Source: Lytechinus pictus (Eukaryota). Taken from it: a stretch of 64,000 nucleotides of DNA. Each line of letters starts with the position of its first letter. The stretch's first letter is position 1. A program made the translations under genes and the position numbers. Under the pieces are notes generated by a model that had not been told where the DNA came from, did not search any database, and saw only the letters and a list, made by a program, of their open reading frames with translations. Location: positions 13,828,001 through 13,892,000 of the forward strand of contig NC_087250.1 of NCBI RefSeq assembly GCF_037042905.1, written 5' to 3'. Shown here in pieces: positions 6,114 to 58,873 of this stretch.

Positions 6114-6128
6114 TTTATTTCTTGATAG

Positions 6129-15544: not shown

Positions 15545-15865
15545 TTAACCAAGGTTAAGTTTTAGATCATCATAACTTTGAAAGTGTATTGGTCTACTAG
15601 TTGTTCAGGAAAATTGGACATAAAGGTATTCAAGTATCATTTATTGTCCTGTAAATGTTAAATAGCCCAGTGTATTTAGGGTTAACCAAGGTTCAAAGTT
15701 TTATAGATCATCATAACTTTGAAAGTATATGGGTCTACTAGTAGTTCATGAAAATTGGACCTAAAGGTATTCAATCATTTATTATCATGTACATGTTAAA
15801 TAGCCTATTGTATTTAGGGTTAACAAAGGTTAAAAGTTTTATAGATCATCATAACTTTGAAAGTA

Positions 15866-25800: not shown

Positions 25801-26090
25801 ACTTTGAAAGTTTATGGATCTGATTCATGAAACTTTTACATAATAATAATCAAGTATCACTGAACATCCTGTGCAAGTTTAAGGTCACATGATTGAGGTC
25901 AAAGGTCATTTAGGGTCAATGAACTTTGGCCAAATTGGGGGTATTTGTTGAATTACCATCATAACTTTGAAAATGTATTGGTCTAGTTCATAAAACTTGG
26001 ACATAAGAGTAATCAAGTATCACTGAACATCCTGTGCGAATTTCAGGTCACATGACCAACGTCAAAGGTCAATGAACTTTGAACTTTGAA

Positions 26091-29000
26091 TTCCATGGAA
26101 GCCTGCATGCAACTTCAATGGAGAGAAAGCTTCGTGGTTTCCACCCTCTACCTTTGATGAAACCCAAGGCACTTCTGTTCCTGAGTGTGCTACTTCTAGC
26201 TAAATCGGGAGATATTGAGGTCAATCCTGGTCCTTGCGCACCAAAGCACCCATGCCAGATCTGCGATCGAGCTGTCACATGGAAACATAGAGCAGTTTCC
26301 TGTGATGATTGCTTACAGTGGTACCATGTGGATTGCATGCACCTGTCCAGTGCTGTCTACAATGTTTTTGGAAATTCTAATGTTTCTTGGCACTGTGTGA
26401 AATGTGGATTACCTCAATTTTCTTCGAGCCTGTTTAACAGTGCAACTCACGTGACATCAAGTAATGCATTTGACGCCCTATCATCTTTGTCGTCCTCTAA
26501 CTCTTCTCTCTCTAGTGAGCACCTATCTGAACCTGGGTCTCCCCGCGCCACATCATCTCCTGCCAGAAAGAAATGCAGAAGTCGCAAAGAAAGGGAGAAA
26601 ACTGTCTTTTCAACATTAACAATCAACTTCCAAAGCATTCAGAACAAGAAAGAGGAAGTTGGAGCACTGATAGATTCTGCCAATCCGGACATCATAATTG
26701 GAACGGAGACATGGTTAAAACCAGAAGTGCACAGTTCTGAAATATTTCCAGTGGGATACAATGTCATCAGAAGGGACCGTCAAGACAGGCCTGGTGGTGG
26801 TGTTCTCATTGCGATAAAGGACAGCCTTTCATTTCAACAACTTTCTAGTGATGTCCAATGTGAGAATGTCTTCATTAAAGTATCACTGAGTGGACGCAAA
26901 TCTCTTGTGATTGGTGCCCTGTATCGACCTCCTTCCAGTGATACTTCGTACTTAGAAGCAGTTTGCTCTCTCGTTGAGCGTATTTGTGAGCAAAATAAGA
27001 ACTCTATCATTTGGATCGGTGGAGATCTTAACTTACCAGGAATTGACTGGGAAACCCTAACTTCAGACAGTCAACGGACCCCTGCACAGCTGAGTGGACG
27101 CTTCATTGAAATGATTCATAGTTGTAACCTCCAACAGATGGTTGATTTTACAACAAGGAATGAGAATATACTCGATCTCTTCATGACTAATCGGCCTTCC
27201 TTGGTATCTGAATGCAAACCACTCCCTGGTCTAGGTGACCATGATATTGTAATGGTCTATTCCCGCATCACACCTCAACGGACTAAACCTGTTAAGCGAA
27301 AGATTTACCTCTGGAAACGAGCAGAAGTCCGTCAGATGAAAGAGAAATGCATATCCTTCAGCAAGTCCTTTACATCCAGATTTAACTCTGACAGCTCTAT
27401 CTCTGATATGTGGTTATCCATAAAATCTAATCTTCTTGATATCCAAGATCAACATGTGCCATCAAAAATGTCATCTGTGCGCTACAACCAGCCTTGGATA
27501 AATACTAAAGTGAAGCGCTTGTCATGAAGAAAGAAGCGCCAGTATACAAGGGCAAGGAGCCAAACAGGTACCGAGGAAGATTTCGAGAAATACAGAGCCC
27601 TAAAGAAAGAGTCAAGATCTGCATGTAAACAGGCATATAATGACTACATCAGGAATATCATATCTCCTGACTCGAAGAGCAACCCAAAGCGATTCTGGTC
27701 ATTTATCAAGAGTAAGAAGTGTGATACAACTGGTGTTGCTCCGTTGAAGTCATCAAATGGAATCATCCAATCTGATCGACTGCACCTCGAAGTCAAACAC
27801 TCTGAATCAACAGTTTGCATCAGTCTTTACGAAGGATGAGTGTCTCACCAACATCCCTGATAAAGGTGATAGTCCTCATCCATCCATGTGTGAAATTGAC
27901 ATTTCTCCAACTGGTGTCAATAAGCTGTTATCCGGACTTGATCCTCATAAAGCAACAGGCCCAGATGGAATTTCTGCCAGGTTACTGAAAACACTGGCTA
28001 ATGAGATTACCCCAGCGCTTACGATACTCTTCAAAGCATCTATCCATCAAGGCATTATCCCAGATGACTGGAGAAAGGCAAACGTTACTCCCGTGTTCAA
28101 GAAAGGAGATAGGAGTAATCCAGAGAACTACAGACCCATATCTCTGACATCTATCTCGTGCAAAGTCCTAGAACATGTTCTCTGCAGCTCTATTATGGAT
28201 CACCTGGATAGTAATAACCAGTGGCGTAACAGGCGGGGGGGGGCAGGGGGGGCAAGTTGCCCCCCCTGGCGGATTTCACCGGGAAAATAAAAGAAAAACG
28301 GGAAAAAGAAAAAAAAAGAGGGAGAAAGAAAGGGAAAGGGGAAGGAAAGGGGAAAAGGAAAGGAGGAAAAGGAAAGGGAAAAGTGAAAAGAAAACGAAGA
28401 AAAACACTTTTTTTAAATGGAAAAGGAAGGAAAGCGGAAAAATGTACGAAAGAAAAACATATGAGAAAGAGCAAATCATTCCGAAATAGGCCTATGTAAT
28501 GCAATAGCAGAGTGGGAAACAAATTAAAAGATGACAAAATGGCAAACAATTGCGGGAAACGAAGGTAGAATGTAATTAGTCAAAAGCTAATGGACTGCAT
28601 ACAACATTGTGCTTTAAGCTTGCTAAATGTTATGCAATTAAGCTACCGGGGCTTTGCCCCAGACCCCACGCAGTAGGGGCTCTTCATTTATAACATTCAT
28701 CTATAACGCCCCCCGTTCAATCACTGGCAGACAGGCGGGGGGGTCTTGGATCCACACCCAAAAGGAAATAAAATAAATTATAGGAGACAACGTATAATGA
28801 AATGAATGGAAACAATAAAAGGTGTTATTTGCTGAATATAATGGAAAAATCTATCACATAATTAGAATTTAATTACAATGGGCATTTTTTTTCCAGCTCG
28901 CTTTGCACGCTGGCGACTTTTTACAAATTTTTCCCACATTGCAATGTTTTGCTCCCTCAAAATATTTGGTTCATTACGCAACTGGGTTGAATAAATGTGT

Positions 29001-30977
29001 TGTGTAAAATAAAGCTACATTCTGTATATGCCCGCGATTTGATTAAAATAGCGGCAATCTGCGAGCTTTAAATGGCTTTGATATCAAGAAGTTCCGGGGG
29101 CTCCGCCCCGGACCCCAACCGCACAGCACAGCGTATGGAAGGGTTGGGCCATGGCTTCAAAAAGTTCTACAAACAAGAACAACAAAAAAAGGAGGAAAGA
29201 AAAGCAAAGGAAAAGTGTAGGATATGATTTTATTAACTGAATAAAAAATAACTCAAAGTTAGATTCTCAGGAAAAGGTGATTTTTTCTCGCTCGCTTCGC
29301 TCGCTCGGGACTTATATAAAGCAGCTTTTTAGCACATGTGCTATACTGCGCCCTTCGTTTTTTTTTTTTTTACTCTTCACGCTACTGCCGCAAAGAATCC
29401 TGTTCACAGTGGCGTACAGACCACAAAAAAGGAATCTAAAGAGAGAAGAGTGAAATATATTATTCTCTGGATAGCATGTCAAAATCTATCACAAAATTGG
29501 ATTTTTGTATTAAAAAGGTCAAAATTTTTGCTCGCTCGCAATTTTTTTTAAAAGATAAATTCTGCCTGATACGCAATATCTGGCCTTCTCGAAATAGTCG
29601 CCTCACTACACCTGTTCATACCATGATATGACCGGGAAATTTTTGGCTCTTGCCCCCCCCCCCCCCTGGCCACCGACCCCTGTTACGCCGCTGGTAATAA
29701 CATTATAACAGATGCTCAATATGGATTCCGTAAGCGACGTTCTTGTATCACCCAACTCATTTTCACCTGTGATGACCTTGCCAAAGGACTTGACAAAGGC
29801 GAACAGCACGACATGATCCTTTTAGATTTTTCGAAGGCTTTTGATAAAGTCCCTCACCATCGACTTCTATACAAACTGAAGTTCTACGGCATTCGTCTTA
29901 CTACCCTGCGCTGGATTCAAGACTTCCTCCACAACAGAACTCAAAGAGTAGTCATCAATGGATGTACCTCAAATACTATCCCAGTCTCGTCAGGCGTGCC
30001 GCAAGGCAGTGTCCTCGGCCCTCTCCTGTTTCTACTCTACATCAATGATCTGCCTGATTGCATTTCATCTCAGACAACAACCAAACTGTTTGCAGATGAC
30101 TGCCTACTCTACCGCAAGATCCAATCTCAGGATGATGCCAACAAACTTCAAGAGGATCTTGACTCCTTGCAGAAGTGGGAGTCAGACTGGCTTATGAAAT
30201 TCAATCCTCAGAAGTGTCAAACTATCTCAGTAACCAACAAGCGGAATCCACTAAACATGACATACTCCATTCATGATCAACCTTTACAAAAGGTCAGCTC
30301 TGTAAAATACCTTGGTGTTCATATTCATCAGAACATGACGTGGAACCACCATATTAGCATGGTCACCAAGAAGGCCAACTCTACACGTGCCTTCTTGCAA
30401 CGTAACCTGCACTCATGCCCAAGAAGCGTCAAGGTTCTATGTTACAAATCTCTCCTCAGACCTGTCCTGGAATATGGATGTGAAGTGTAGGACCCCTTCA
30501 CCAAGGACAACACCCGGAAGCTGGAGATGGTGCAGCGACGATATGCTAGATTCACCATGGGAGACCATCGTCGCACTAGTAGTGTCACCGATATGCTACG
30601 ATAGCTACAGTGGCCCACCCTTGAAGAGAGAAGAGCCCAGTTCAAGGTGGTGATGGTTTATCGCTTGGTAAACACAATTGTTGATGTACCAAAGGTACAG
30701 TACTTCAACCAGGCTGCTACTTCCACTTCGCTTCGTGGTCATCAGATGAGGTTACACGTCCCACATGCTCGCACTGTTGCTTATCAGAAAACTTTTATTC
30801 CTGATGCCATTAGACTGTGGAATATTCTCCCTGCCATTACAGTTAACTGCACTTCAGTAGCCAGCTTCAAGGCTGAGGTGCAGAAAATCCAATTGCGCTA
30901 AGACTGCGCATTTTTTTTTTCTACAAGTACGATGATACACCAACCTGGTGGACTGTACTTAAACGGATGATGATGAT
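26091..30977 (+). mobile_element. CR1-group non-LTR retrotransposon (2A-like peptide, PHD, APE endonuclease, RT), inactivated
   Basis: GDIEVNPGP, C4HC3 PHD, APE motifs (GTETWL, YRPP, GDLN, DHD), RT motifs (LDFSKAFDKV, GVPQGSVLGP, LFADD); stops at 27525 and 30488, frameshift ~27775, ORF end 30901, (GAT)n tail. Confidence 0.95.
28219..29693. mobile_element. hAT-type non-autonomous element inserted in the LINE RT region
   Basis: TIRs CAGTGGCGTAACAGG / CCTGTTACGCCGCTG; perfect 8-bp TSD GTAATAAC; removal restores the RT frame (DSNN|IITDAQYGFR). Confidence 0.93.
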
Positions 30978-38152: not shown

Positions 38153-40642
38153 GTTGCTAAACCCATACATCCTGAGCAGTGTATTTAGGTCCAAATTCAC
38201 TGTTCAATACATTTATACCACAATGTTACCAAGTACATATATACAAGTACTTTTCCTCTCAATACAATTAAGTTTCTCTATAAAATTGTAGGATAATTTA
38301 TCATGTAATTTGTATTGATATATTGTACATGTATAATGTACACTGTATTTCAAGACTACACTGTAGCTATTCATAGCACACAGTGAATGAGAGGCAACAG
38401 ACAGTTCCATCGGTCCCTAAAACAGAGAATTAGCCTATAACTTTATTCGTACAAATGCTGTTTAAGATATGAGTACTTGTTAAACTCACTGTGCAACTGG
38501 ATTACACTCAACAGTGTTGTGTCATCCTTTCTGGGATCATTTACCAAAAAGGCTGTTTTAGCATTGTTATAACGAAATTAAAATTTCATTCAGTATTGAA
38601 AATTATTCGTACAAACTACAAAATGTCAAAAGTATTTTCATTTTCTTGATTTCTATATTATTACTATGATTTGGTTATTTGTTTTACAGTTTGCATCTAG
38701 TTAAATAGCACCGACAATATAATATAATATCATTATAATTATTATTTTTTTTTTTTTTATTTTTTTTTTTTTGGGGGGGTGATGTTACAATGTATGTAAA
38801 TCAAATCATCAAATTTCATATTTGTTTTGTTTTGTTTAATTTACGATTTTGTTAATTGTTATGAAAAGAAATGTTCTTTTACAATGTATTTCTTTGATTA
38901 TTTTTTTTTTAATGTTAATTTTTCTTTGATTGTAATCATTTATGTTTGGATTTGAAAATCAATAGAATATTTATTTTACAACTTACAAGATTTGAATAAT
39001 TAAAAAATTATAGTGTAAATTCATTGTACAAAATGCAAAAAAACATAGAATGGCAAGGCATACATGTAGCATATAAAATATCAATAAACATTGATTAAAA
39101 AAAATGAGGCAGTAAGAGAAATTAGGCATAGCTTGCCAGCTGTATTTGCTTTGAGATTGTGTGTACAATGTAGCATTTTTTTCTTGACATAGCAATTTAC
39201 ATGTAGTCCATAACAGCAGAACAAAAACATTTTCCCTCTTTTATCGTATGGAAGCAGCTTAGAAAATACATTATATGGGGACAGCAGACGGTTTGCCCCC
39301 AAATCACCCCTATGATTCCCAAAATGGCTTGCTTTGGGGGTCCATCTTGTTTTAGAGTCACCCCAAGATATGCCAAAAAACAATATTAAAGAACAAAGTT
39401 TAGAAAATCATTGATATTACAGGTATATGGCAGTAACCAGTAATGATTATATTTTTATTAACCCCATACTGTAATGTAATTAACCGTCTATAAGTTTGAG
39501 CATGAACTCACAATTGTTTTTTATCGGCTAATGATCTAAAAAAAATAAATGAGCTCCTTTTTTAAATGATTTTATATTCCCTTTACCACTTAAACATTAC
39601 ATTTTGATTTTCTTATTTCAGGCCTACATTTCGGTAATAAATTTTTGATTTATTACACAATTTCCTTGATTGATATACTGATCTACTTTCTATTGCTGTA
39701 TAATTTATTTCTACATTGCTGTATTATTGTTGGTCTTCCTTGATCTGTGTATAATGTGAAAACAGGGCATGTACATCCCTGTAAATATTTTGCTTGATCT
39801 ATTAGCTGCAATGATGCTGTGATATACATTTACTGTACATGTACATGTAGCTGCCAAATATTCCTATATTTGGAGCATTCCAATGTACAGCTATGGGAAA
39901 AGAAGATTATTATTCTATCCTGTTCCTATATTTTGTGAAAATGATATTTTGTACTTTTGTATTGAATAGGAAATTCAAAAATGATCCTATTTCATGGATT
40001 TTTGTAGTATTTAGTTCCCATTACTTGGCTGTTAGGGTTGGCAGTATATACATGTATATGCTGTTACATACAATAAACAGATGCATGTTTTCCATGCGTT
40101 GTTAGTAAACCTATATTGCTGTCATTAATTTCAATATTCCACATGTACTAAGAATCTTGCTATACAGTAGGATTGATCAGAAGTAAAGTCACATGATAAA
40201 GGGTAGTTTCCCCCATCAAACATCACTCGCATTGATGGATCTGGGGCCCGTTGCAGAAAAAGTTGCAATCAAACGCAACTCTAAAAATCATGTGCAACTT
40301 GATTTTCATCCAATCAACAGCGCGCATTTGGGACTTGCGATTGATTTTTTGACTTTCGTTTAAACGCAACTCTTTCTGCAACGGACCCCTGTTGTATTTT
40401 GCTGATCTTTTCAGCTTGTAACACATTGTGAATTAGTTTGAGTATGATCAAAATTATTAAAAGAGGTCATTGCCCCTCAATGTTTGTCCATCACCTCACC
40501 AACAGTGATTACTTGCTTTATCCCGTTTTCCTTCATCTATTGGCAATTTAATTCATTGATACACATTTGTTTTTATATTCCCGGTAATGAATTAATAGTC
40601 AGAAAACTGAGCACTTGCATGTATAAACATCTGTTTTATTAA

Positions 40643-41581
40643 GGACGTTCCACAGTTAAAATGAAATCCATGTCATTTTCACCAAACTTTGCACATAGAT
40701 ACTTTAGAAACTGAATATTCGAAATATGCAAAAATTAACATAGGTCCATGTGCTTGATTTTTTGCTATAGAGCTTCAAAGTTCACCCAACTGGATGTTCT
40801 TACGAATTGCGCATTCTAAAGAATTTGGCATTTTTAAACCTCGCAAGGTCACTACAATGAGTTTAAACCTCTATTACTCAGTCAAAAATACATGAAAAAG
40901 TAATCAAATTTCGCAAGAGAGTTAATAATTGTATCGTTAGAATGGAGAATCTATTTATAGTGCTATTCGTTTGCAATTTTAAGTCTAACAGCACTGTCAG
41001 TTCTTAAAAATGGCGTAAAACATAACAAAAACCCATTCTGAAACATGTGAAATTTCAATAACAAACTACAAAAGTACAATAAATGCTGCACTTTATTCAA
41101 AATCCATGTCATTTTCACCAAAATTTGCATAGTTGTAGAGGAAGGTATACCTAAGAGGTGCAAACGGTAAAAAATAGGGCTTCATGTGCTTGTTTTCAAA
41201 CTATCAGCATTTTCATTAGAGCAAATGTGCTTTTTAAAACACCAGAAATGCGCCAAATGCTTTGTATCTATGTGAAGAAAAAAATTAAAACCACTCTACC
41301 ATTTATTCAAACTCGGGGTCATATTCGTGATTTTTGGCAGCACTGCAGAGGAAAGTATTTTGAAATTGTAGAGATGTTTTTTAAAATGGTCCATGGAATA
41401 ATTAAATTTCTTTAGCTTCATAAAAAGAATGCATCGGATCTGCAGTTAGAGTGCAGATGATGAGAAAAATCTGTTCATACCCACAGCTAATTAATCACCT
41501 GTTCATCCATTGTGACGTCAGCGCGCAGAGTGTAAAATATGCGCAGATCATAATGCGCACAAACATAACTGTGGAACGTCC
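40643..41581. mobile_element. TTAA-flanked MITE
   Basis: TTAA|GGACGTTCCACAGTTA ... TAACTGTGGAACGTCC|TTAA. Confidence 0.85.
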
Positions 41582-41679
41582 TTAAATGCTTTATAGATCT
41601 ATATTATTAGTTAATATTCATATTTATAATTATTATATTTCCCACATTTAATTCATGTTTGTACATTTGTATCTTACAG

Positions 41680-41829
41680 CATCTGATTGTCTGTCAATAA
41701 TGGAAGCTGGAAGTGAATTAGTGAAAGTAAGATCTCCCTCGAGACAATACAATCGTTTCTTTGCTCTAAGTGAAGACAGGTCCGAGCTTCGATGGCATTC
41801 ATCTTCAAAGAAACCAGAAAAAGCAAGAA
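41680..41829 (+). CDS. PLCL2: PLCL exon 2 (PH domain N-half)
   Basis: TTACAG| ASDCLSIMEAGSELVKVRSPSRQYNRFFALSEDRSELRWHSSSKKPEKAR |GTAAGT; phase 1-1; PLC PH-domain signature. Confidence 0.92.
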
Positions 41830-42164
41830 GTAAGTCATGTCTTCTGTATTAAAAACATACGGTTTTGATGAGACTCCATTATTTTTCAAAAGGTCCCCAC
41901 CATCAAAAAATGGCAGCTTTCGAATTTGTAATGTTTTCGTGTATTTATTTATTTATTTATTTCTTTATGTATTTATTTACTTATTTATTCATTCATTTAT
42001 TTATTTGTTTGTTTGTTTATTAATTAATTAATTAATTAATTAATTTATTTATTTTATTAATTATTTATTTATTTTTTTTTTTTTTTGGGGGGGGGACCAA
42101 AACAGTTTTTATTAAAAATAAACTACTCTCCCCAAGTCTAATTATAATTACTAATATTAAAATT

Positions 42165-42545: not shown

Positions 42546-42752
42546 TTTCTGTTGAGAGTATAAAGGAAGTACGACTGGGGAAGACGACCGAGATGTTCAG
42601 GTCTCAAAACATGGCCATGGATTTCCCTGAAGATTGCGCGTTTTCTGTGATATTTGGTGAATCTTACGAGACTCTGGATCTGGTAGCTGCCACACCAGAC
42701 GAAGCCAATATATGGGTGACTGGTTTGTCTTATCTTATAGGAGGAAACACAA
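42546..42752 (+). CDS. PLCL2: PLCL exon 3 (PH domain C-half)
   Basis: TTTCAG| ISVESIKEVRLGKTTEMFRS...EDCAFSVIFGESYETLDLVAATPDEANIWVTGLSYLI |GTAAGT; phase 1-1. Confidence 0.93.
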
Positions 42753-43094
42753 GTAAGTATCTGCTATTGAGTCACTATCATAAAATGGTGATTTGGATCC
42801 TTATCAAATGATATATGCTGAACCAGCCATTTATTTTAGCTACATGTATAAACAGTATACAAATAGGGAATAGGCATGAGTTTGATGGTACAAGGTTGAA
42901 TAGAGTGTCTCTTTCTTTCACCGAATGCGAAAGGTTGCACCATTGCACAATAAGAATACATTCGCTATATGTTTTGTACAATGTCTTGGAAAATCAAACA
43001 ATAGTTGATTTTTTTTTCCAAGTTTTGTCTATGAAAATGAGAAAAAATTATTCAAAGCAAAATGCAAAATCCCACATATATGTACGCGCATCTG

Positions 43095-44022
43095 GGGCCC
43101 GTCTTACAAAGAGTTGCAATTGATCCGATCAATCGCAACTATGGACGGCCAGGAACATCAACATCTATTAAGCAATGTTTGTTCAAAAAATTACTATGAT
43201 TTCTATTCATGCATTCATTGTTTTCTTGAAAACTCACTGTGCCTCTCTGTGTTTACCAAGGACATTGTGCAAATTTCCTGTAGAAAAAATTATGACACTG
43301 ATGGATTTCCATAGAGTTAAGATTGATTGGATCAATCGTAACTCTTTGTAAAGGCGACCGCACACCTTACGACTGGTCTGCGACCCGATTTTGGAACAAA
43401 TCGCATTTTGCTCATTTTTTGAAGATGTGAATGGAACATATCATTTTATTTGAGGTTAAGATTAATTGAAATAATAATATTATAACCATTTTGAAAGATT
43501 GCAAGCCCTTATTTTGGAGTAAAGTCCAAATTAGTTTCAAATCGTAGCCAATCGTACGACTGCTATGACGTCATTACGACTAGATATCAAATTTGCTTTT
43601 ATTCTAAGAAGGATGATAGCATAGTCACAAATTTGATCATAGGTATTCGTACGATGATTTAGAACATTACACAGTAAGATATTCCAAGTCTTAATATTAG
43701 CATCAAATACTACTACATTTTATTCTGAAATCGGGTCGCAGACCAGTCGTAAGGTGTGCGGTCGCCTTAAGATGGGGCCCAGGGGCCCGTCTTACAAAGA
43801 GTTGCGATTGATCCGATCAATAGCAACTATGGACGGCCAGCAAAGTAAATGCATGCTTGTTAAAAAAAAATTCTAGATATGAATGTATATCCATAAATCA
43901 ATTGATTTCTTGACAATTTGTTGTGTTCTCCTTTGTTTACAAAGGACATTTTTCAAATTTTATTTAGAAAAAATTATGACATTGATGGATTTCCATAGAG
44001 TAACTCTTTGTAAGATGGGGCC
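43095..44022. mobile_element. Two stacked CWG-target Harbinger-like MITEs; the first contains a TAA-TSD MITE (43352-43767)
   Basis: CTG|GGGCCCGTCTTACAAAGAG...|CAG|GGGCCCGTCTTAC...|CAG; inner TIR AGGCGACCGCACACCTTACGACTGGTCTGCGACCCGATT. Confidence 0.8.
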
Positions 44023-44606
44023 CAGATCTGCAACAATTTTAATACCAAGCATGGTTTAGTATACATTATGACGTCAGGACGGTGCAACGGTACAATCTTT
44101 ATGGTACATGTACCTGTGCAACGGTGTGAATGTCTGATGCTCAGCCTCTCATTGGCTTGTGTATGTTCAACAAGCTTGGTACAGGCATTTATAAAAAAAA
44201 TTTACCAATGACTGACCTGTAATTATTGACCAGTCATTGGGTTTGAGGTTAGGGCGGGGTGTCAAATAACACTGATCCACTGATACACATAATTTTTCTT
44301 TGGCAATAATTTTTACTCTTTACCTTTGAAAATGTCCAAACGTTTGGTGGTGTTAAAAGTGTGCCAAAAGTACCTTGTGCATGTAATTCTCACTAATGAT
44401 TTACACTATTGTTAATTGATCAGTTGTGTGTTCTTTCCAAACCTATTTTGAAATACATGTAGAATCCTTACATTGTGATTTGGAAGCACTGCTGGTAGCT
44501 AGTTGTCCAAGTTCTTAATACTGACTTTCCATATTTCCAACTGATTGAAATTAAGTATTGCATTTTTAAATAAATTTCCTCCTTATTTCACTTTCATTCA
44601 TTTCAG

Positions 44607-44646
44607 CACCAGAAGCTATAGAAAGGAATCAAGAATTACGAGATTC
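44607..44646 (+). CDS. PLCL2: PLCL exon 4 (40-bp exon followed by a U12 donor)
   Basis: TTTCAG| (T)PEAIERNQELRD(S) |ATATCCTTTT; the phases bridge exon 3 and the exon at 48020 exactly. Confidence 0.85.
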
Positions 44647-44926
44647 ATATCCTTTTCATTTTCATCATTGTTTCATGTAGGTGTATTTGTATCACATATT
44701 ATTGACATACAGTGTTTATTTATATTCAGTCCAGATTTTCTGCCTTTAGGGACGGAGGGGGCGGGGGCGGGGGCGGGGGAGGGGTGGGAGCTTGTGGTTC
44801 CATTTGTGGTGCTGCTCTTGAATAGATGATTGATTTGATTATCAGAGTGATGATTAAGATGTGAAAAATGACATTAATTTTCTTGACTGTATGCAGATTC
44901 TTTCATAATGGTGAGAGATACATCAG

Positions 44927-45243
44927 GGGCCTGTTTCATTAGGAGTTACAACTTGTAACTTTGCCATTATGGCAACTACCATGGCAACAGGTCTCAGCAG
45001 CCAATCATAATCACAGTTACCATGTTAGTTGCCATAATGAATGGCAAATTTACAACAGTTGCAACTCATTGTGAAACAGGCCCCAGGGCTCCGTAACACA
45101 AAGGTTTACGATGGATTGCAAATATGAAAGAACCGTACTCATTGGCTCCCAGTCAGTATTTTAAACATAGTGCGCATGCAATGATGATCTTGATTGGTCA
45201 TTGGTATTTAGCGATTAATTGCAAACCTTTGTGTTACGGAGCC
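44927..45243. mobile_element. Two different small MITEs sharing CAG TSDs
   Basis: CAG|GGGCCTGTTTCA..TGAAACAGGCCC|CAG|GGCTCCGTAACACAAAGG..CCTTTGTGTTACGGAGCC|CAG. Confidence 0.8.
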
Positions 45244-46442
45244 CAGGTGTGTTTTTGAAGCGCCCCCTGCCCTAGTCTGGTGTGTGAACCCTTCGCTCCA
45301 GTTAGGAGTCTGAATGTGCAGCCTACTCATGCCTTGTGTACTGATGGCTCTCTCGCTCAATTGAAACAGCAATTTTCAAATGTGCTAGTCTTTGTGTGGA
45401 AACCCACTTGTTGATCAAATTTTTAATCAGGGTCTGTGCCTGCCCCACCTTATAGGACACTCGCTCATTGCTGGCAATGGTGTTGACACCAACACCATCA
45501 CTATTTATAGCAACACCGTGCTGCTATAAACTATTATTTATTACTTTATAGCAGCACAGTGTTGCTATAAAGTATTAAATAGTGATGGTGTTGGGTGTTT
45601 GTGGTGGTGTTTCTGTTAATAGAGAGGGCTATCATTGGTGTTTCTGTTAATAGTGTTAATAGTGATGGTGTTGGTGTCAGTGTTTGTGTTTAAAAGACAT
45701 GATCACAGTTTGACAGCCGAATGACCAAGTTTGGCATTAATAATGATTGTGATTATTTTCTTGCATGATTGACATCTATGTGTTTGATGATGCACCCTTG
45801 ATGAGAAGGTCAATTAATCTCACATGTTGGGAAATATGTTTTTTAAGCCCTCTGTACCCCATATTTTGCTGCCTAATTGGATTATTAATATGGTGATAAT
45901 GTTGTTGTGAATAATGATAATCATGCCTTTAATTTGGTATCTCACATTGATCCCCACCTTTCATTACATGTACACATGAATGTACATACATGTAGATTAT
46001 CATTATGACATACCATGCCTGGCAACTGTCAATGTTTAAATAGGGACAGTCCCAAATTTTTGTAGAAAGAGAGAGAGAGAGTCACTTAAACCACAGTGTA
46101 CGTGTCCTGGTGAAAAATCTGTAGACCTGAACTATATCAATAGGAACCCCCGGCAAAAGTCCTGATTTTCAGCCATTGTCTTCCCGTATGCCCCATTTTC
46201 TCAAGTTTCAGGGTTGGCAGGTACATGTATGTTATGGTGATAATGATATTGATTTCCTTTATGATTTCATTATTTAATCATGGTTGATGTTAGATAAATC
46301 AGTGGGTAATGTATGGTGATGAAGATGATGATTCTTTAATCAATTACATGTACATGTATCTCACTTGGTTGGAATGTATATGCATGTTTAATACAGGTAC
46401 AGGTGATCATGGTCATGATGTTGATTTCCTTGACTCGATTAA

Positions 46443-46951
46443 AGGGGAAGTTCACCCTGACAAAAACTTTGTAAAAATAACAGAAAAAATAATGAAAAAT
46501 ATTGGTAAAGGTTTGAGGAAAATGCATAAATGATGAAAGAGAGATATTAGAATTTCAAGTTTTTTATTTGTGATGTCATAAACAACCAGAGCTCTGCCCC
46601 ATATGTTACATGTACAGTACGTAATATAAAATGCATAAATTTCATTTTTTTAATGGTTCGTAATGACTTATTTTTTATTTTCTTTTAAGGAGCGGGTGGG
46701 AAATTATTTTTCTATTGATATACTGAATGTACAATTCAAACCATTTTCAATTTTCAGAGAAAATGGCATTTCATTGATTTTTTACCATTCGATATGTAAG
46801 CTGCTCGCATATGACGTCACAAATTGAATAATTAAAATGTTAATAACTTTTTTATTCTTTGATGGATTTTCCTCAAACCTCGCCAATATTTTTAAATTAT
46901 TTTTTCTGCTATTTTTGAAATAAACTTTCTCAGTCAGGGTGAACTTCCTCT
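46443..46951. mobile_element. Kolobok-like TTAA MITE
   Basis: TTAA|AGGGGAAGTTCACCCTGAC ... GTCAGGGTGAACTTCCTCT|TTAA. Confidence 0.85.
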
Positions 46952-47186
46952 TTAAACTCACATGGTTGAGAAATGTTTAATAATGCACCCTTGATGAGAT
47001 GATGATAATGATGATGATATTAATTTCCTTGACTTTAGTTACCAATCTCACATGGTTGAGATATGTTTAATAATGCACCCTTGATAAGATGATGATGATA
47101 GTGATGTTGATATTGGTGGTGGTGGTGATGATGTTATTGTTGTTGATGATGATGGTATTAGTTTACTTGACTTTTTTAATAGTTAA

Positions 47187-47757
47187 AGTGATCATTTCAC
47201 TTTGTTCTGATTTAAAAAATTCTCCTTTTGGTTCCTGAAAATGGGCTAAACATTAGGCTTATAGTGTAAAAATACCATCCCAAAAGTTTCAAAGTATTAT
47301 ATTTACAGGATCAATTTAAAAACCTAGGAGATGTAAACCAAAGTTTGAAATAATTGGGAGTTGGTTTCAATGACTATATGTATACAGGGATTCTGTGCAC
47401 CACAACACATTAATTCTAGATGAAAACAGCATTACCTACATACAGTGTGTACAAGGTATACACTGAATATACAGTGCAGCTAATAGTGTGTGTATAGGAG
47501 ATACACACAACAGAATGCAGTCAAAATAGCCAACGGACTTTTTGAATTGGAGAAAACTGGTCATAAGCTGAACCCGTCTACTAGACGGTTCTCAAAATCA
47601 GGCTAATAAATTGCTACTTGTATCTAAATTAGAGTTTTTCATCCTATATTGTGGTCTGTTTCAGGGTTTTTGAGGACAAATACAGGCACTCATACGCACG
47701 TTTCAACTCAGTTTGAGAAATTTTTAAATCAGCTGCTCACAAAGTTAAACGATCCCT
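47187..47757. mobile_element. Kolobok-like TTAA MITE (different family; relatives at ~18600-19150 and 61221-61601)
   Basis: TTAA|AGTGATCATTTCACTTTG ... CAAAGTTAAACGATCCCT|TTAA. Confidence 0.8.
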
Positions 47758-48019
47758 TTAAATCTCACATGGTTGGGAGATATGTTTAACAAAGCAGCTG
47801 GTGATTTGATGATATTGATATGAATGTGATGATGATGATAATGTTGGTGATATTGATTTCTTTGACTTCAGGAGTTAAATCTCACATGGTTGAGAGATAC
47901 ATGTATGTTCAACAAAGCAGCGGGTGATTTGATGATATTGATATGAATGTGATGATGATTATGTTGATGATGATGATAATGATGATTATATTAATTTCCT
48001 TGACTCAATTAAATCTCAC

Positions 48020-48149
48020 ATGGTTGAGAGATATGTTTAACAAAGCAGCTGGTGATTCATTAGGTCAGTTGGATGAATGTGAAGTTATGCAGCTCATGAA
48101 GAAACTTAACAATGGTGTCGCCTCAACTCGGATTAGACACAAGTTTAGG
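48020..48149 (+). CDS. PLCL2: PLCL exon 5 (first EF-hand-like region); no further exon recognised in the window
   Basis: WLRDMFNKAAGDSLGQLDECEVMQLMKKLNNGVASTRIRHKFR |GTAAGT; matches the PLC EF-hand start (W...F...). Confidence 0.88.
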
Positions 48150-49469
48150 GTAAGTCCTTATCTTATCAATGATATAATATTGCCAAGTAGTACTGATTTT
48201 CAGTTATCAGTACTGAAATTGAAACAAAATATTGCTTGTTTCATTAAAAATAATGATTTCTGAAGTTTTTTAATTCATGTGTTTTGTGGTATTTATTTGA
48301 AAATACTGATTTCCTCACCAAAATACTGATATTCAGCTTTTGAAATACTGAAATGTTCTTGTGCAGTTTGGCATCTCTGCAATATCCCCTATTCACAGTT
48401 GTTACTGCACATGAGCAGTAAAAGGTCATTCAAGGTAAACAAAATGGTCTTCAAATTCACTGATGCATCCATGATTGGATGATTATTCATGTAGGCCTAT
48501 ACTATGCTTTTCACACTGTAGTACAGAACGTTCATGAGGTAAAGCTTAGCCCACTTTGGTTTCACACTAGGTTTTTAAAGTGGACTAGCAATATATTGGT
48601 ACGGTACTATCTGTCTTGCCCTGCTAAAAAGCAGGGTTAGCCGGCTTATTGCGGTGCTAAGAACCGCAGTGTGAAACCAAACCGGGCTTAGGAAAAGTGG
48701 GGCTAAGCATTAGCCAATTACAGAAGTGGAAATTGCATGTTAATCATGCTCTGTGTTGCAAAATCATCAATATTCATGAGCTGTGCGACAGTCAGGGGTT
48801 AAGTGCTCGGATGTGTGATACAGGTATATTTTTAGCCCGGAGCATCCCTTTATTAAAAAGTGATCATACAGATATCATACAATGTCCCTGCACTGATACG
48901 GTATGCTCTATCATGGGATCAAATTGAATTCCAGTCTAGTGTAGAAAGCCTGGTAAAATAGAACTTATACATGTAGTTTTGGGGGCCATGAGGCCGTTCT
49001 CATTATGCTTTCTAAAACTAGTTTACTGGAATCCGATTCAAAAAACCAATTTGGAAGATCGCTTTGCTAGCGTTCCCACTTGATCATACGAAAGTGGTTT
49101 TCAAAATCATTTCACGATCTTGTTGCTTGTTGCTAACTCCCAATGCACCGCATGTACCATGTACAGATATACTTGAAATATCAGTGGTTAGTGAAATCTT
49201 GTGTCATACAGTCAGACCAGTATTCAACGTTAGTACCAGTATATTTCAGCATGGGTTTGCATTGGAAATTTTATACCTCTTGAAATTAAAGGGAAACATA
49301 TCCCCAAGCTCAATCTCGTAATTGGTCTAGGCTTTATAACAGATTCCAGGTCAAGGTCTCTGTCTATATCTTGGGCACATTTCAATATGCACAAATGATG
49401 AACAAATAAAAAGGGACATCTTTAATACGTACATTCAAGATGCGGATGGAAAATATGCAGGGGCGTGGG

Positions 49470-50924: not shown

Positions 50925-53900
50925 AGACCCTACTAGGATCCACGCATTAATATCCTAGCCTGAAGGTATAAGACCTATTGAAACCAATTAATTCAATGTC
51001 CTTTATCTCCTGGCCGCCAATTTATTCCCAATGAGATGCTATTGGTTGGAGGTCTTAACAAGTCGTACGCGATACATGTATGTCTCGTGTTCAGGAAATT
51101 CAAAGCTTAACAGTTGTAGGCTGTAGCAAATGATGATTTGATGAAAAAGTCTTTAAAATTGTCACCGATTCAAAAGTCATCATGTCGAAGTTCAATTAAT
51201 TTTGTTGTCTTTCCATTTTTAATGCACAACATGTACATGTACATGTACACCTGTTATCAAATTGGTCTTTTGGAATGTACAAGACATTTTTATGCCATGT
51301 AATATTAGTCCATTGATTCTTGCCATTACAAGTTTGTTTGTTGGAACTTTGAAGAGCTTATTATTTTTAATAAGCTGTTATTTTTAAACTTTATCCATAT
51401 CTACATGCATATTTGTTGTCATTAAGCAAAATTTGTTGTTACTCAAAATTTGTATTTCTTCCATGCCCCTGAAGGGACCGTTCTAGAAATAAAATCACTC
51501 TACTGTACCATATATAGATCTAGATCCTGTAAATTTGTTTACTGTCTACAAGTATAACCTAACTATGTGAAATCATAAAATCTATTATCTGGAAAACAAA
51601 CTTTGAAATCATATGACATCTATGAAAGCTTAAAAAAAAGATCACATTGAAGATCGCCAACACATGTTCTTCTTGTCCTTGTCCTTTCAATAGAAACAAT
51701 ATACACTGTATGTCTAATTCACATCCACAATAATACGCTGTACATGTACGTGTACCTTTGAATTCATCCATTGCATCTCTTCCTTTTCTTCGTGATCTTC
51801 CAACGTGTGGTATTAGAATAGGGATGATCGTAATTTTGTTTTTTTAAAAAGCCCGACATGTACAAGTACATACAAAGCAAAACATGTTTGAGTGTACAGG
51901 TACATGTCTAGCGGTACTCATTATATTTGCAAGATGGAGAATGAAGATGAAAACATAGCTTTTGATGTAGTTTTCCTTCAAATGGCATGTCCCTGACCTT
52001 TTAGAATGGTGTGTGTGTGATAGATGTATGTCAGAATACCTAGGTTTATAATGTAAGAAACCTTCAGATGATCAGTAGATTGCAATGGATGAGGAGCCCT
52101 TGGCAAACTATGTTTGGTTGCAGTTCTGCAGGTACATTATGGACAACACAGAATGATAATGAATTAAAGATGTAGCTGTCAAAGTTGTAGTACATTGTAC
52201 ATAGTATGCCTTCATCGTGTCTGTTCATCAGTTAAAGGTTGTAAGGAACTCTCGTACGAAGCCCCGGAGCAGAACAAGTTTGTGTGCAGATTCTCTCTCT
52301 CAGAATGTTTTACAGAGTGATTATATGATATGTACAGTACAGGACATTGATCTTGATGTTAGTTCCTTTTACAGGTATAGAATGTCCTTGAATAGAGAGT
52401 GTAACACAGCACTGGCGGATCCAGGGGGGGGGGGGGGGAGCTGGCCCATGCCCCCCTTTGAGAGGCACAATTAAAATTTGCAATGTAAATATGCAGTTAG
52501 AGCAGAAATGTGCCCCCTTATTTTTTTCTTTTTTTTTTGCTTGTCAATTTTTTTTCGTGAACGGAATGTCCTCATTTTGGGTTGAAAACTTTTGTTTTTT
52601 GCTTGTTAATTTTTCCTTGGGGAAAATGTGCCCCCCCCCCTTTTTGGAAAATCCTGGATCCGCCCCCGGTACATGTAAACAAAAATTGAATGAATGTTTG
52701 ACAAGAGAGAACGTTCTAAGGAATACATTGTTTATGTACATGTACAGTATGTATTTCCACAAAATAATAAATGTTATCGAAGAGAAGCCCTTTTTTATAA
52801 AGACATGTTTGGTTGCAGGTAGTGTATTATTATTATTATTCATTTGGCCATTAAAAAACATACAAAAATTGTACAATGTAATTACAAAAACACTATTTGA
52901 TATTAAATAATTAAATATGGATATGTAAAAATGAAAGAAAAGAAGAAAAGAGTAAGAAAATTGTTTTTCCATGGGCCAGGGCTCGCAAAAGTAAAATTCA
53001 GTACTATCGCCCAGAGGCATGCGATGCGAGCCCCCATGGAAAAATCATTGAGAGTATTGCACATTCCGGTATATAAGATTACACATTAAAATTCAAATAA
53101 AACACATTCAACAGTTATTATTAAGAAGTATAAGAAATATGGAAAAAACATTGAAATTTTTGCACATTCCGGTATATAAAATTACACATTAAAATTCAAA
53201 TAAAACACATTCAACAGTTATTATTATTAAAGAAGTATGTAACGCCAGGCAAGATAAAAGAAATAAAGAGGGGTATTGGGAAGAATTTGAATACCCATGC
53301 CGGGTGTACATGTAAAGAAGGCACAGAAGAATAGTTTGACCATGGACCCTGGTATGATGTACAATACGCAGCTCTCAATAATTTTGTCTATTTGTTTTAT
53401 CATGTCCTTGGCATGCAAGAATTGTATGAGGGTCTGATCGTATGTTTGTCATAGTGGCTGGCTTCTGGGAATACATCCTTCAAAATAGTATTGTAATTTG
53501 AAAAAAAAAGGAGCCCTTATAAAAACATGTCGGGGTGCTGGTACTCGTAACACACAGAATAGTGAGGAGTGAGAAAGCACATTTCGGCATGTTTATAATG
53601 TACTGTACTGGAGTAAAACCAATGAACTTCATAGAATACCAGGCTTACATACTGTACATGTATGTACTATTACATGTACATGTACATGATATATACTTTC
53701 ATTTTATATTCATTTTGTATTGTAATAATTATGTATGCATATTCAATTTGTACATGTACTGTATATACCTACTGTATAGATTAGTCTGCTGTGCAAACCA
53801 TTCACTTGAGCTATTAAGGGTCTGAATGCAAAGCCTATAATGACTCATGTGCTGAAGGCCTATAAAGGGACGCACCATTAGAATACCCAGGGGGGGGGGG

Positions 53901-57518: not shown

Positions 57519-58077
57519 TGCTGTGCAACTACTTTCTTTTTGATACCTGAAATGTGTTTTATTTGATTGGCTGCCTGATAAAATACAAAACACCTTCTCA
57601 AGTATGGATTGGGCTAAAAACTTCAGGATTAACTATTGATGCTCAAACAGGAGTTTAAAATGAAATGAAAAATGTTACCAAGAAAGGGTTCTTTATTTAA
57701 ATTGAAATACATGTACTAAGGGCTGGACAATTTTAAAATTCTAGGTAAAAAAATGCATTCAATGACTTCTACGCTTTTGTATTGTCCGTTGATACTTAAG
57801 TATATTAGTTCACACTACTGATCGTTTACCAAAGTTTTAGACAGGCTTTTGATATTTTGATTAAAGTATGAAGGAGAGAGCACATAATATGAGCAGTGCT
57901 TGTATGCTCACACAATGCTCTCTATGGTCCCTATGCAACAAAAAGTGCAGGAAATAAAGGTCAATACATGTACATGCTATGCATGCTACTCTACATGTAC
58001 AGTATGCTGATCACATTGCAAATAGTCTATTGAGGTTCTGTTCAAGCCAGACCCCATGCTTCATTGAAACATATATT

Positions 58078-58532
58078 GATTATGATGACGATGATGATGG
58101 TGATGATGGTGATGATGATGGTGATGATGATGATGATGATGATGGTGATGATGATGGTGATGATGGTGATGATGATGGTGGTGATGATGGTGATGCTGAT
58201 GATGCTGATGATGAGTCTGTTGATAATGTTGATGGTAATGATGATGATGATGATGACGATGGTAATGATGATGATATTGATGATGATGGTGATGATAATG
58301 ATAATGATGGTGATGATGATGATGGTGATGATGATGGTGATGATGATGATGCTGATGATGCTGATGATGATGATGCTGATGATGAGTCTGTTGATAATGT
58401 TGATGGTAATGATGATGATGACGATGCTAATAATGATGATGATATTGATGATGATGGTGAATGATGATGACAGTGATGTTGATGATGCTGATCATATTGA
58501 TGATGATGATGATGATAACGATGATGGTGATA
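58078..58532. repeat. (GAT)n compound microsatellite with an internal duplication
   Basis: GAT/GGT/GCT triplets; GAGTCTGTTGATAATGTTGATGGTAAT occurs twice. Confidence 0.95.
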
Positions 58533-58873
58533 TTGGGTACTACATGTAAGTTTGAAGATTAATGTGCCTTTTCTTGTACTTTATAGTTTATACATTTACC
58601 TAGTGTTTTTGCTGTTTTCCATTAAACACCTTGAGCAAAATCAAAAATGGAAAAGATGCTATATAAATCCTACATTTTATTATTATTATTATTATCATTA
58701 TTATTATATTATTATGTGCATTATTTATACACAAGTGGTGCCATATTCACTGTAACCATCCAAATAAAAAAAAATTGGGGGGCTACTTTTCACAACTTAC
58801 TGTTGTTTCAGGGAATAAGTTTCCTGGTATCACATTGCAATTTGCTCCACATTTTTTAAAGACTGCTACACAA

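Follow-up and report, generated by a model that had tools for sequence, protein, structure and literature searches.

Two unrelated TTAA-targeting MITEs in the same spacer site of duplicated acceptor copies of a predicted U12-type intron of Lytechinus pictus

Upstream of their real acceptor, U2-type introns can contain decoy (pseudo) 3' splice sites and acceptor duplicates, which decay unconstrained. The branch point of U12-type introns follows a TCCTTRAC-like consensus, lies near the 3' end and is not accompanied by a polypyrimidine tract. A tandem repeat of U12-type 5' splice sites, the USSE, regulates SNRNP48 and RNPC3; in U12 introns, the branch site is optimally spaced 11-13 nt from the 3' splice site, and the choice of 3' splice site is distance-dependent and error-prone (PMC3584512). 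Among TTAA-targeting transposons, the T2-MITEs, non-autonomous elements of the Kolobok superfamily, have been described in Xenopus and are characterized by a TTAA target and AG/AGGRR termini (PMC6004289). No description of a tandem U12 acceptor array, or of its interruption by transposons, was found among the literature matches listed.

The locus described here shares features with each of these systems. As in U2-type decoys, unused copies of a splice signal located upstream of the real site are decaying without constraint, but U12 splicing ties the 3' splice site to a short fixed distance from the branch site, so that one spacer insertion uncouples both signals. As in the USSE, tandem minor-spliceosome signals lie within a gene and nonsense-mediated decay is expected for the alternative products; however, the USSE consists of two deeply conserved copies of a 5' splice site with a demonstrated function, whereas here a branch site plus 3' splice site is repeated in at least six decaying copies. 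A USSE-like element, in which tandem U12 5' splice sites conserved among species activate an upstream U2 3' splice site, was discarded as a classification of this locus on the same ground, the repeated signals being branch site and 3' splice site and not 5' splice sites.

The minor intron and its host gene

The window, i.e. the whole 64-kb stretch of DNA that was analysed, contains part of a gene predicted from its domain matches to be PLC-delta-like (phospholipase-C-delta-like). All features are located on the + strand and coordinates are window positions. Exon A (42546..42752) covers the C-terminal half of a PLC-delta-type PH domain, with a match to PF16457 PH_12 in Pfam (E 4e-13) and PLC delta-1 (1mai_A, E 2.3e-11) as the top solved-structure relative. 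It is directly followed by a U2-type GT..AG intron (42753-44606), whose joint 42752->44607 was found in one read of run X24, two reads of X21 and one contig of X17, and by the 40-nt mini-exon B (44607..44646), which is preceded by tttcag and has RNA joints at both ends. A 3373-bp AT-AC intron (44647..48019) links this mini-exon to the EF-hand-like exon C (48020..48150), the start of the PLC EF region, which shows a weak calmodulin-type EF-hand match (E 0.011), is followed by GTAAGT and is covered by a piece of the X17 contig (48021-48150) in addition to the RNA joint. The reading frame is open across exons A-B-C. Of the 116 stop-to-stop frames that the + strand has from 32 kb on, 102 were scanned against Pfam, leaving aside 12 frames in intron repeats (44959-47786) and two low-complexity frames (57958-58546); only the PH_12 matches mattered, and no PLC catalytic exon was found among the 102 frames.

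Among the public runs listed for this locus there was no RNA run, and the best one contained only 0.17 of the sampled words, so that none clearly covers the locus. Reads of four runs were aligned at 90% likeness. The joint across the AT-AC intron (44646->48020/48021) was recovered in four reads of X24 (two starts), one read of X21 and one contig of X17. The joint 44646->48021 leaves a single letter G between its two sides, which we read as position 48020 being G and not A in those runs, so that the skipped segment is AT..AC. The 5' splice site ATATCCTTTT (44647-44656) matches /ATATCCTT and is one of three exact RTATCCTT occurrences in the window, the sole one on the + strand between the exons. 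The functional branch site TTCCTTGAC (47996-48004) is not accompanied by a polypyrimidine tract, and its branch A is separated from the final base of the intron by 16 nt, a spacing slightly longer than the published optimum of 11-13 nt. With this 5' splice site, this branch-point sequence and AT..AC termini joined in RNA, the segment 44647..48019 is predicted to be a minor-spliceosome (U11/U12) intron.

Tandem copies of the acceptor

The 3' end of the intron was found repeated in at least six clear upstream copies, plus more degenerate ones. The repeated unit consists of a TGATGA-rich run, the branch site TTCCTTGAC, a 13-nt spacer that includes a TTAA, the motif CTCAC and about 43 nt of exon. 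In the functional acceptor (C5, 47985..48019) the intron ends with AC at 48018-48019 and the spacer TTAA (48009-48012) is unoccupied, as the original prediction had stated, and use of this acceptor is supported by RNA.

The copies differ in their degree of decay, and cassette alignments place the younger units nearest the exon. The most upstream degenerate cassette (44868..44941, TTTCTTGAC ... ATGGTGAGAGAT) aligned locally to the functional one with a score of 45, and an old remnant at 45810..45841 (score 48) retains an intact spacer TTAA (45814-45817) and TCTCAC, the branch site being absent. Degenerate cassette C0a (46243..46310, score 49) has a spacer-like TTAA at 46274, and C0 (46331..46410), also degenerate, a branch-site-like motif TTCTTTAAT. 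C1 keeps a perfect branch site TTCCTTGAC (46426..46434) followed by a target TTAA (46439-46442); a second TTAA (46952-46955) with ACTCAC (46952..46961, AC at 46960-46961) precedes its exon-like head. C2 (47014..47085) also has a perfect branch site (47025-47033); its AC (47050-47051) and its branch A are 19 nt apart, and its homologous TTAA is split by CC (TTACCAA). C3 carries a branch site with one mismatch, TTACTTGAC (47163..47171), a target TTAA at 47183-47186 and a second TTAA (47758-47761) with ATCTCAC (47758..47768, AC at 47767-47768). C4 (47850..47929) has the branch site TTCTTTGAC (47858-47866), an unoccupied TTAA (47875-47878) and an AC (47884-47885) that is 20 nt away from its branch A. 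Every decoy bears a lesion in its spacing or branch site, and many other lesions were seen in all of them. The possibility that the cassette is a dispersed repeat or transposon was rejected, as only its microsatellite part matches elsewhere in the genome; the cassettes are local duplicates. A search of the species' own genome for the array and for exon C revealed neither a second haplotype nor a paralogue, and a metagenome scan with a 29-nt exon-start string gave 0 matches.

C1, C2 and C5 share the same branch site and the same first 15 nt past the AC, with diverged neighbouring sequence. This could be expected if the array itself were functional, its extra branch sites holding U11/U12 and tuning splicing and the MITEs being incidental or modulatory, and regulatory tandem U12 signals are known from the USSE (PMC3584512). 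Such a function is nevertheless very unlikely, since the shared sequence may stem from gene conversion or from the small sample, and the older copies are plainly decaying.

The upstream copies contain only about 43 nt of exon followed by TGATGA repeats, and only the 3'-most copy adjoins the rest of the exon, so that splicing to any upstream copy leads to a stop within 7-21 codons. These truncated, stop-yielding copies imply that the functional copy has always been the 3'-most one. The suggestion in the original prediction that an insertion killed a formerly active acceptor which a duplicate then rescued does not fit this arrangement. The perfect branch site of C1 and its 15-nt spacing before the insertion would agree with an acceptor active at that time, but a MITE in the sole working acceptor would have done harm before a duplicate could take over, and the position of the younger units nearest the exon looks as if the working copy had been repeatedly duplicated and not replaced. 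An acceptor killed and then rescued is therefore highly improbable.

MITEs and small insertions in the spacers

The original prediction had placed two unrelated TTAA-targeting MITEs in the homologous TTAA of two cassettes, parting branch point and AC, and this description was borne out by their TTAA flanks, by their genomic copies and by the comparison of both families, which revealed no significant similarity (best blastn E 0.12). MITE1 (509 bp, 46443..46951) is flanked by the TTAAs at 46439-46442 and 46952-46955, and MITE2 (571 bp, 47187..47757) by those at 47183-47186 and 47758-47761. The distance between branch A and AC has increased from 15 nt before the insertion to 528 nt now in C1, and from 23 to 598 nt in C3. 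When the MITE plus one TTAA is removed, the empty sites of C1 and C3 align to the C5 TTAA, and C4 and C5, where the paralogous site is empty, have one TTAA each, as is expected from target duplication.

MITE1 ends in AGGGGAAGTTCACC and the complement of AGAGGAAG, with terminal inverted repeats of about 140 bp. A first look in the genome gave 4699 candidates; the 40 scored matched over the full length (query 1-509) at 79-82% identity, and 25 of 29 other copies fetched had TTAA on both sides. For MITE2, which ends in AGTGATCATTTCAC and the complement of AGGGATCGTTTAAC, there were 733 candidates, the 40 scored being full length at 97-98% identity, and TTAA was present on both sides in 29/29 other copies. 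Dating from the consensus, as had been proposed, gave a divergence of 62/489 aligned positions (12.7%) for MITE1 against 29 other copies and of 9/571 (1.6%) for MITE2, other copies of MITE2 having a median of 0.7%. MITE1 is thus an old element, with many copies, and MITE2 a member of a young family, and the approximately 8-fold difference in age (12.7% versus 1.6%) indicates separate insertion events.

Piggybac elements carry CCC...GGG termini next to TTAA. They resemble the elements found here in the TTAA target that is duplicated on insertion and differ in the termini, and a piggyBac origin was rejected because every one of the 60 listed copies has AG...CT termini. The termini of both elements follow the AG../AGGRR pattern, reading AGGGGAAG and AGAGGAAG in MITE1 and AGTGATCA and AGGGATCG in MITE2. 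By termini and TTAA target, MITE1 and MITE2 are thus putatively of the Kolobok/T2 type, whose members would be mobilised by a Kolobok (THAP + DDE) transposase. They share with the T2-MITEs (PMC6004289) the TTAA duplication, the short length, terminal inverted repeats, high copy number, the coexistence of old and recently active families and the AGGRR motif (AGGGG in MITE1; AGTGA and AGGGA in MITE2), and differ in host genome, internal sequences and the unusually long terminal inverted repeats of MITE1. The intron is rich in transposons, with at least two MITEs besides MITE1 and MITE2: two adjacent elements, not of the TTAA type, occupy 44924..45247, their terminal repeats beginning GGGGCCTGTTTCA and GGGCTCCGTAACAC, and this region shows a self inverted match and many genomic copies of query 437-601 at 86-95% identity.

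A third spacer was also reported to be interrupted, and the double TACATG TACATGTACATGTA (46345-46358) does lie in the spacer of the degenerate copy C0, where it interrupts the homologous TTAA. A Tc1/mariner excision footprint is a TA duplication around the element's terminal nucleotides. The cutting geometry of these elements would leave a CA+TG footprint, and a Tc1-like element in the window ends TA-CACTG...CAGTG-TA; nothing relevant was found in the literature on TACATGTA as a footprint. TACATGTA occurs 49 times in the window versus 1.86 expected, 7/49 being within this intron, and in C4 a CATGTA insertion creates it at 47898-47905, where the cassette alignment reads GAGATA-CATG-TATG against GAGATATG in C5. 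TACATG-type insertions being common genome-wide, the C0 lesion is weak as a coincidence. All coordinates given in the original prediction were confirmed.

Chance, hotspot and selection as explanations

The count of TTAAs called for in the original prediction gave 30 in the 2285 bp of the pre-insertion intron, of which 5-6 are the paralogous spacer site. Given two TTAA-type insertions and 29-30 intron TTAAs, the probability that both fall in spacer TTAAs is 0.014-0.033, and that both fall in any one homologous TTAA class is 0.055. The coincidence is rarer when measured against average TTAA occupancy, which counts against a neutral reading: occupancy per TTAA is 1.5-3.8% in the window and falls to about 0.8% across 162 kb from other loci, the window-wide value giving P about 0.001-0.013, and at least two hits in 4-5 sites have P about 0.001-0.003 (occupancy 1.5-1.9% in the window, about 0.8% in other loci). 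The double-MITE coincidence is nominally unusual, but it was noticed post hoc and comprises two events only, and for something spotted after the fact a conditional P of 0.014-0.055 is not an extreme value.

On balance we favour, as somewhat probable, a neutral coincidence in dispensable DNA in which duplicated pseudo-acceptors were hit by two MITEs. The 3' end of the AT-AC U12-type intron has been duplicated in tandem repeatedly, with the last copy alone adjoining the remaining exon and being spliced, and the upstream copies are redundant, decaying pseudo-acceptors. Two unrelated TTAA-transposing MITEs entered paralogous spacer TTAAs independently and at very different times. Insertion into a pseudo-acceptor would cost nothing. 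In the functional copy, by contrast, such an insertion would part branch site from AC, and selection would remove it; an optimum U12 distance of 11-13 nt (PMC3584512) explains why the TTAA there has to remain empty. The coincidence would reflect the few targets available, with 5-6 of 30 TTAAs representing one paralogous site, and a local susceptibility common to these identical contexts may contribute. The data show the intron and the acceptor used, the cassettes, the identity, age and target of each MITE and the lack of a flank preference; that the insertions are neutral, and how they act on splicing, is inferred. The coincidence neither requires nor shows selection for silencing.

A mutational hotspot would explain the excess if the spacer TTAA, in its sequence or chromatin context, were preferred by TTAA-/TA-cutting transposases, with the CC in the C2 TTAA and the TACATG in the C0 TTAA perhaps representing traces of further visits. 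Lesions lie exactly at the homologous TTAA in 4/6 decoy spacers (MITE1, MITE2, the CC of C2 and an 11-nt insertion in C0), both MITEs have termini of the same superfamily type, so plausibly related transposases, and two TTAA-type MITEs are found in the 2.3-kb intron versus nine in the 64-kb window. However, the target logo of 54 insertion sites contains no information beyond the TTAA (at most 0.09 bit at any flank position), TGATGA runs are not enriched near insertions (12/58 insertion sites versus 232/845 control TTAAs), and the other two TTAA classes within the same cassettes received 0 insertions, so that a hotspot is distinctly doubtful. The lack of a flank preference or microsatellite association to explain a hotspot also stands against the neutral reading. 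The original prediction had named an extended target context of the MITE families, or an occupancy set by TTAA density, as ways in which the pattern could be ordinary; no such context was found in the 54 sites, and occupancy is somewhat above that predicted by density (p about 0.001-0.05 by conditioning). Neither of these objections was borne out, and there is likewise nothing that positively supports its proposal that selection fixed silencing insertions.

Under selection for silencing, the duplicates would compete as U12 acceptors and MITEs that break the spacing would be fixed, a reading that we consider unlikely. The use of a decoy leads to the early stop described above, the choice of U12 3' splice sites is distance-dependent and error-prone (PMC3584512), and no decoy has escaped a spacing or branch-site lesion. 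Spacer indels also look enriched, with about 6-7 in the 13-nt spacers versus about 3-4 in the 43-nt exon-like heads as read from the alignments, a pattern that selection on spacing would produce. C1, which alone among the decoys matched the functional copy in branch site and spacing (15 nt), was a full-strength competitor before it received the old MITE1, an observation that also weighs against neutrality. If neutral insertions were spread uniformly, the coincidence would, nominally, be improbable. It is conceivable, at the same tentative level, that serial duplication yields full-strength rival acceptors, that selection, owing to the strict U12 distance, disables these in the 13-nt spacer, and that the two MITEs, the insertions of CC and TACATG at that TTAA and the apparent excess of spacer indels are successive selected decoy knock-outs.

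Several observations argue against selection for silencing. At an occupancy of 1-2%, point mutations and indels should be a much more frequent source of silenced decoys than MITE insertion into a single TTAA. With small lesions so much commoner, a double MITE hit would become only a few-fold more probable under selection, which explains it just slightly better than neutrality does. Most other lesions of C3 are much older than MITE2; as the branch site of C3 is mutated, its spacing was 23 nt and MITE2 is only 1.6% diverged, this element probably struck an already weak decoy. C2 (perfect branch site, 19 nt) and C4 (TTCTTTGAC, 20 nt) persist without a MITE, and MITE1 leaves the perfect branch site of C1 intact and provides a terminal AG 11 nt downstream of the branch A. 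All six junction observations (five reads and one contig) fall at the functional site, a depth far too low to judge and with no power for decoy use or empty alleles. Among the 15 joints listed (803 further), none leads to a decoy acceptor or skips exactly MITE1 or MITE2, and no DNA contig over the cassette array was found among those listed for the four runs.

Minor (U12-type) introns are rare and have rigid signals, and their alternative 3' splice-site use is poorly understood. At least six graded natural copies of one U12 acceptor, which vary in branch-site sequence, pre-insertion spacing (15 to 23 nt) and transposon interruption, provide a series for testing the choice among competing branch sites. 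If the lesions were selected, duplicated splice signals would carry a selectable cost that transposons can pay off, and the locus would be a natural experiment on 3' splice-site choice in minor introns. If they were not, which we consider more likely, it would be a clear illustration that independent hits at one site can seem meaningful when targets are few, here 30 TTAAs. The functional acceptor keeps an open TTAA in a genome in which a TTAA-targeting family is young (median 0.7% from its consensus).

A U12-type intron with an array of acceptor-like cassettes

Three exons could be defined on the + strand of the window, with a single reading frame continuous across all of them. In exon A (42546-42752) lies the coding sequence for the C-terminal half of a PH domain of PLC-delta type (PF16457 PH_12, E 4e-13; best solved relative 1mai_A, PLC delta-1, E 2.3e-11). 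Exon B, a mini-exon of 40 nt (44607-44646), has tttcag before it and ATATCCTTTT after it, and exon C (48020-48150), EF-hand-like with a weak calmodulin match (E 0.011), is followed by GTAAGT. This PLC-delta-like gene probably has its preceding exon in an upstream frame at 41652-41849, which matches the PH_12 N-terminal half with a score below the curated cut-off (E 1.4e-4).

The intron 44647-48019 is of the U12-type AT-AC class and has a length of 3373 bp. RTATCCTT is matched exactly at just three places in the window; one is ATATCCTT at 44647, and no other lies between the exons on the + strand. The 3' end of the intron consists of TTCCTTGAC, 13 nt and AC. The public RNA runs aligned to the region contain the joint 42752 to 44607 (GT..AG) in one X24 read, two X21 reads and one X17 contig, and the joint 44646 to 48021, with a lone G between, in four X24 reads (two starts), one X21 read and one X17 contig. 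The latter was read as the AT..AC intron, with G in place of A at 48020, and this joint to exon C in the three runs confirmed the functional acceptor of the original prediction. The substitution affects the opening base of exon C, is synonymous (TCA to TCG) and abuts the U12 3' splice junction; the joint table names it for X17 only, and it is attributed to X24 and X21 by interpretation of their reads. In the RNA runs, the exons show 2-3% divergence from the window (6/207 and 3/130 letters in X17), so the runs come from other individuals or from a close relative. A G-quadruplex-like stretch, (GGGGGC)n / GGAGGGGGCGGG, covers about 30 nt (44754-44784) and is located about 110 nt 3' of the U12 5' splice site.

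When the functional cassette (C5, acceptor at 47985-48019) was aligned locally to the intron with the two MITEs taken out, upstream acceptor-like copies, or decoys, were found: C3 (47156-47806, score 109), C4 (47850-47929, 102), C2 (47014-47085, 89), C1 (46415-46997, 87), C0a (46243-46310, 49), an older remnant (45810-45841, 48), C0 (46331-46410, 45) and the most upstream cassette (44868-44941, 45), together with further weaker traces. Likeness to the functional cassette was highest in the copies closest to the exon. The window has three exact copies of the branch-site string, all in the 3' part of the intron (46426, 47025 and 47996), and copies with one mismatch at 47163 and 47858; CTCACATGGTTGAGA with up to three mismatches was found nine times (2.5 expected), six of them inside the array. 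The paralogous spacer TTAA is intact at 45814, 46274, 46439, 47183, 47875 and 48009, and is disrupted in C2 by CC and in C0 by a TACATG insertion. Splicing to any of the upstream ACs would bring the frame to a stop after 7-21 codons. The cassette was also considered as a dispersed repeat, which was rejected when a search of the 812-Mb eukaryotic assembly with 47762-48160 returned only the query itself, its array neighbours and TGATGA microsatellites.

Among known tandem arrays of U12 signals, the USSE comes closest; PMC3584512 describes it as a conserved regulator made of U12 5' splice sites. What is repeated here is instead the branch site with the 3' splice site, in an array that is decaying. 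A full-text literature search, evaluated at the level of result lists, yielded no account of a tandem U12 acceptor array or of transposons in such spacers.

Two unrelated MITEs in decoy spacers

The predicted boundaries of MITE1 (46443-46951, in C1) and MITE2 (47187-47757, in C3) proved exact, with full-length matches to genomic copies. Among 40 copies scored of 4699 first-look candidates, MITE1 matched over its full 509 bp at 79-82% identity, and among 40 scored of 733 candidates MITE2 matched over 571 bp at 97-98%. TTAA was present at both ends of 25/29 other MITE1 copies and 29/29 other MITE2 copies, and the empty state with a single TTAA is displayed by the paralogous cassettes C4 and C5. 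The terminal inverted repeats of MITE1 are about 140 bp long. As predicted, the two MITEs are unrelated as families, with no similarity detectable between them (best E 0.12), yet they are of one superfamily type. T2-MITEs and the Kolobok superfamily are described in PMC6004289 as having a TTAA target and terminal AG/AGGRR, and the ends found here (AGGGG in MITE1; AGTGA and AGGGA in MITE2) are of this kind. Both families are new within this known Kolobok/T2 type.

In comparison with a consensus built from the remaining fetched copies, MITE1 has 62 differences in 489 aligned positions (12.7%; median of the others 3.0%), and MITE2 has 9 in 571 (1.6%; median 0.7%). Since a younger subfamily supplied the MITE1 consensus, 12.7% is an upper bound. 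Judging by these divergences, the two insertions clearly took place independently and at very different times.

Other TTAA-flanked inverted-repeat elements are present at 19898-20813, 20339-20695, 22986-23346 and 40639-41585, one of them nested in another; three start with AG (AGGGATGG, AGTTTAGC, AGTTTCGC), which is Kolobok-like, and the fourth with GGACG. Directly 3' of the most upstream cassette remnant, two abutting non-TTAA MITEs (44924-45247) have terminal repeats starting with GGGGCCTGTTTCA and GGGCTCCGTAACAC, the second having many genomic copies at 86-95% identity, and a 106-nt hairpin-like inverted repeat follows at 45489-45594. Elsewhere in the window, a series of long + strand open frames at 26076-30898 (483, 103, 180, 287 aa and others) looks like a degraded retrotransposon, and a highly periodic 1227-aa open frame at 6032-9712, in which ATATCCAT/GTATCCAT strings recur about every 84-270 nt, probably represents a long tandem repeat rather than a gene.

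The distance from the branch A to the last intron base is 16 nt in C5, 19 nt in C2 and 20 nt in C4, and in C1 and C3 it was 15 and 23 nt before insertion and is now 528 and 598 nt. The branch site is perfect in C5, C1 and C2, and reads TTACTTGAC in C3 and TTCTTTGAC in C4. According to PMC3584512, the distance between branch site and 3' splice site matters in U12 introns and is optimal at 11-13 nt; recognition of the 5' splice site and the branch site by U11/U12 is cooperative, and 3' splice site selection is error-prone. Therefore, both MITEs uncouple the branch site from the AC, which would silence these decoys. The perfect branch site of C1 was left untouched by MITE1, the terminal AG of which lies 11 nt 3' of the branch A (46433-46444), and in C2 the CC insertion makes an AC 10 nt after the branch A (47032-47042). 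From their position, both could be candidate cryptic U12 3' splice sites, although the sparse RNA data contained no joint to either.

The TACATG lesion and its possible origin

The third predicted lesion was also found, with TACATGTACATGTA at 46345-46358 interrupting the homologous TTAA of the degenerate C0. In the window, the palindrome TACATGTA exceeds expectation about 25-fold (49 occurrences, 1.86 expected; for example at 39836-39849, 46345-46358, 47898-47905, 51234-51247 and 53671-53684), and 211 kb from 60 other loci contain 62, against 0-9 for other TA-NNNN-TA palindromes. In comparisons of paralogues and of MITE copies, it shows up as a CATG(TA) insertion at TA: C4 has, outside the spacer, GAGATA-CATG-TATG aligned with GAGATATG in C5, and five of 12 private insertions of at least 4 bp in MITE1 copies are of CATG type beside TA. 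Lesions of this type are common genome-wide, and the one in C0 adds little to the coincidence.

A Tc1-like element at 15864-17528 has perfect 27-nt arms, TA included (15864-15890 and 17502-17528; ends TA|CACTG...CAGTG|TA), and a 322-aa frame on the - strand (16199-17164) matching DDE_3 and HTH_Tnp_Tc3_2. The element looks young and is a candidate source of CA/TG footprints, TA+CA+TG+TA being what we take to be the excision footprint of such an element; a literature search found no paper confirming it as such. Across the genome, TACATGTA may be the footprint left where TA-targeting elements with CA...TG ends have excised.

Coincidence, selection and neutral insertion

Without the two MITEs, the intron has 2285 bp and 30 TTAAs. 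Conditional on two TTAA-type insertions in the intron, the probability that both fall in spacer TTAAs of different cassettes is 0.014 (4/29 sites), 0.024 (5/29) or 0.033 (6/30), and 0.055 for a coincidence in any of three TTAA classes per cassette. With nine TTAA-flanked inverted-repeat pairs at 518 TTAAs in the window, MITE1 and MITE2 included, and ten pairs at 1263 TTAAs in 162 kb of other loci, the unconditioned probability of at least two hits among 4-5 sites is 0.0013-0.013 (occupancy 1.5-3.8%). The coincidence is nominally significant, at about 0.001-0.05, for two events noticed post hoc.

A common mutational susceptibility of the spacer TTAA would agree with the lesions lying exactly at this site in 4/6 decoy spacers, and is considered rather improbable. 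A preference of the MITE families for an extended target context, envisaged in the original prediction as a refutation, was not detected: the logo of 54 insertion sites carried at most 0.09 bit at any flank position, and TGATGA runs were not commoner near insertions (12/58) than near control TTAAs (232/845).

Selection for silencing of the decoys appears about as unlikely as a shared hotspot. It would fit C1, formerly a full-strength competitor, in which the old MITE sits, and the small indels, with about 6-7 events in the 13-nt spacers and 3-4 in the 43-nt heads, approximate counts read off alignments in which some events are common to several cassettes and the spacer is AT-rich. Against it stands a rate argument of ours, since about 1-2% of TTAAs were filled while old MITEs diverged by 10-15%, and over the same time span a decoy exposes about ten critical bases and an indel-prone spacer to ordinary mutation. 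A harmful decoy would mostly be silenced by point mutation or small indel, and therefore selection would make two MITE hits only a few-fold more probable. Moreover, C2 and C4 are still present without a MITE, and C3 has a branch-site substitution and a spacer extended to 23 nt, an extension partly common to C2, with a MITE2 just 1.6% diverged; MITE2 probably entered C3 when it was already weakened. All six junction observations are at C5, a depth far too low to gauge decoy use.

The other proposal, that an insertion destroyed an active acceptor and a duplicate took over, does not fit the arrangement of the array, in which the remainder of the exon follows directly on the 3'-most copy alone. 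The most likely account, favoured with modest confidence, is that the MITEs would have inserted neutrally into dispensable pseudo-acceptors, where few available targets, possibly with some shared susceptibility, would yield hits at the same site.
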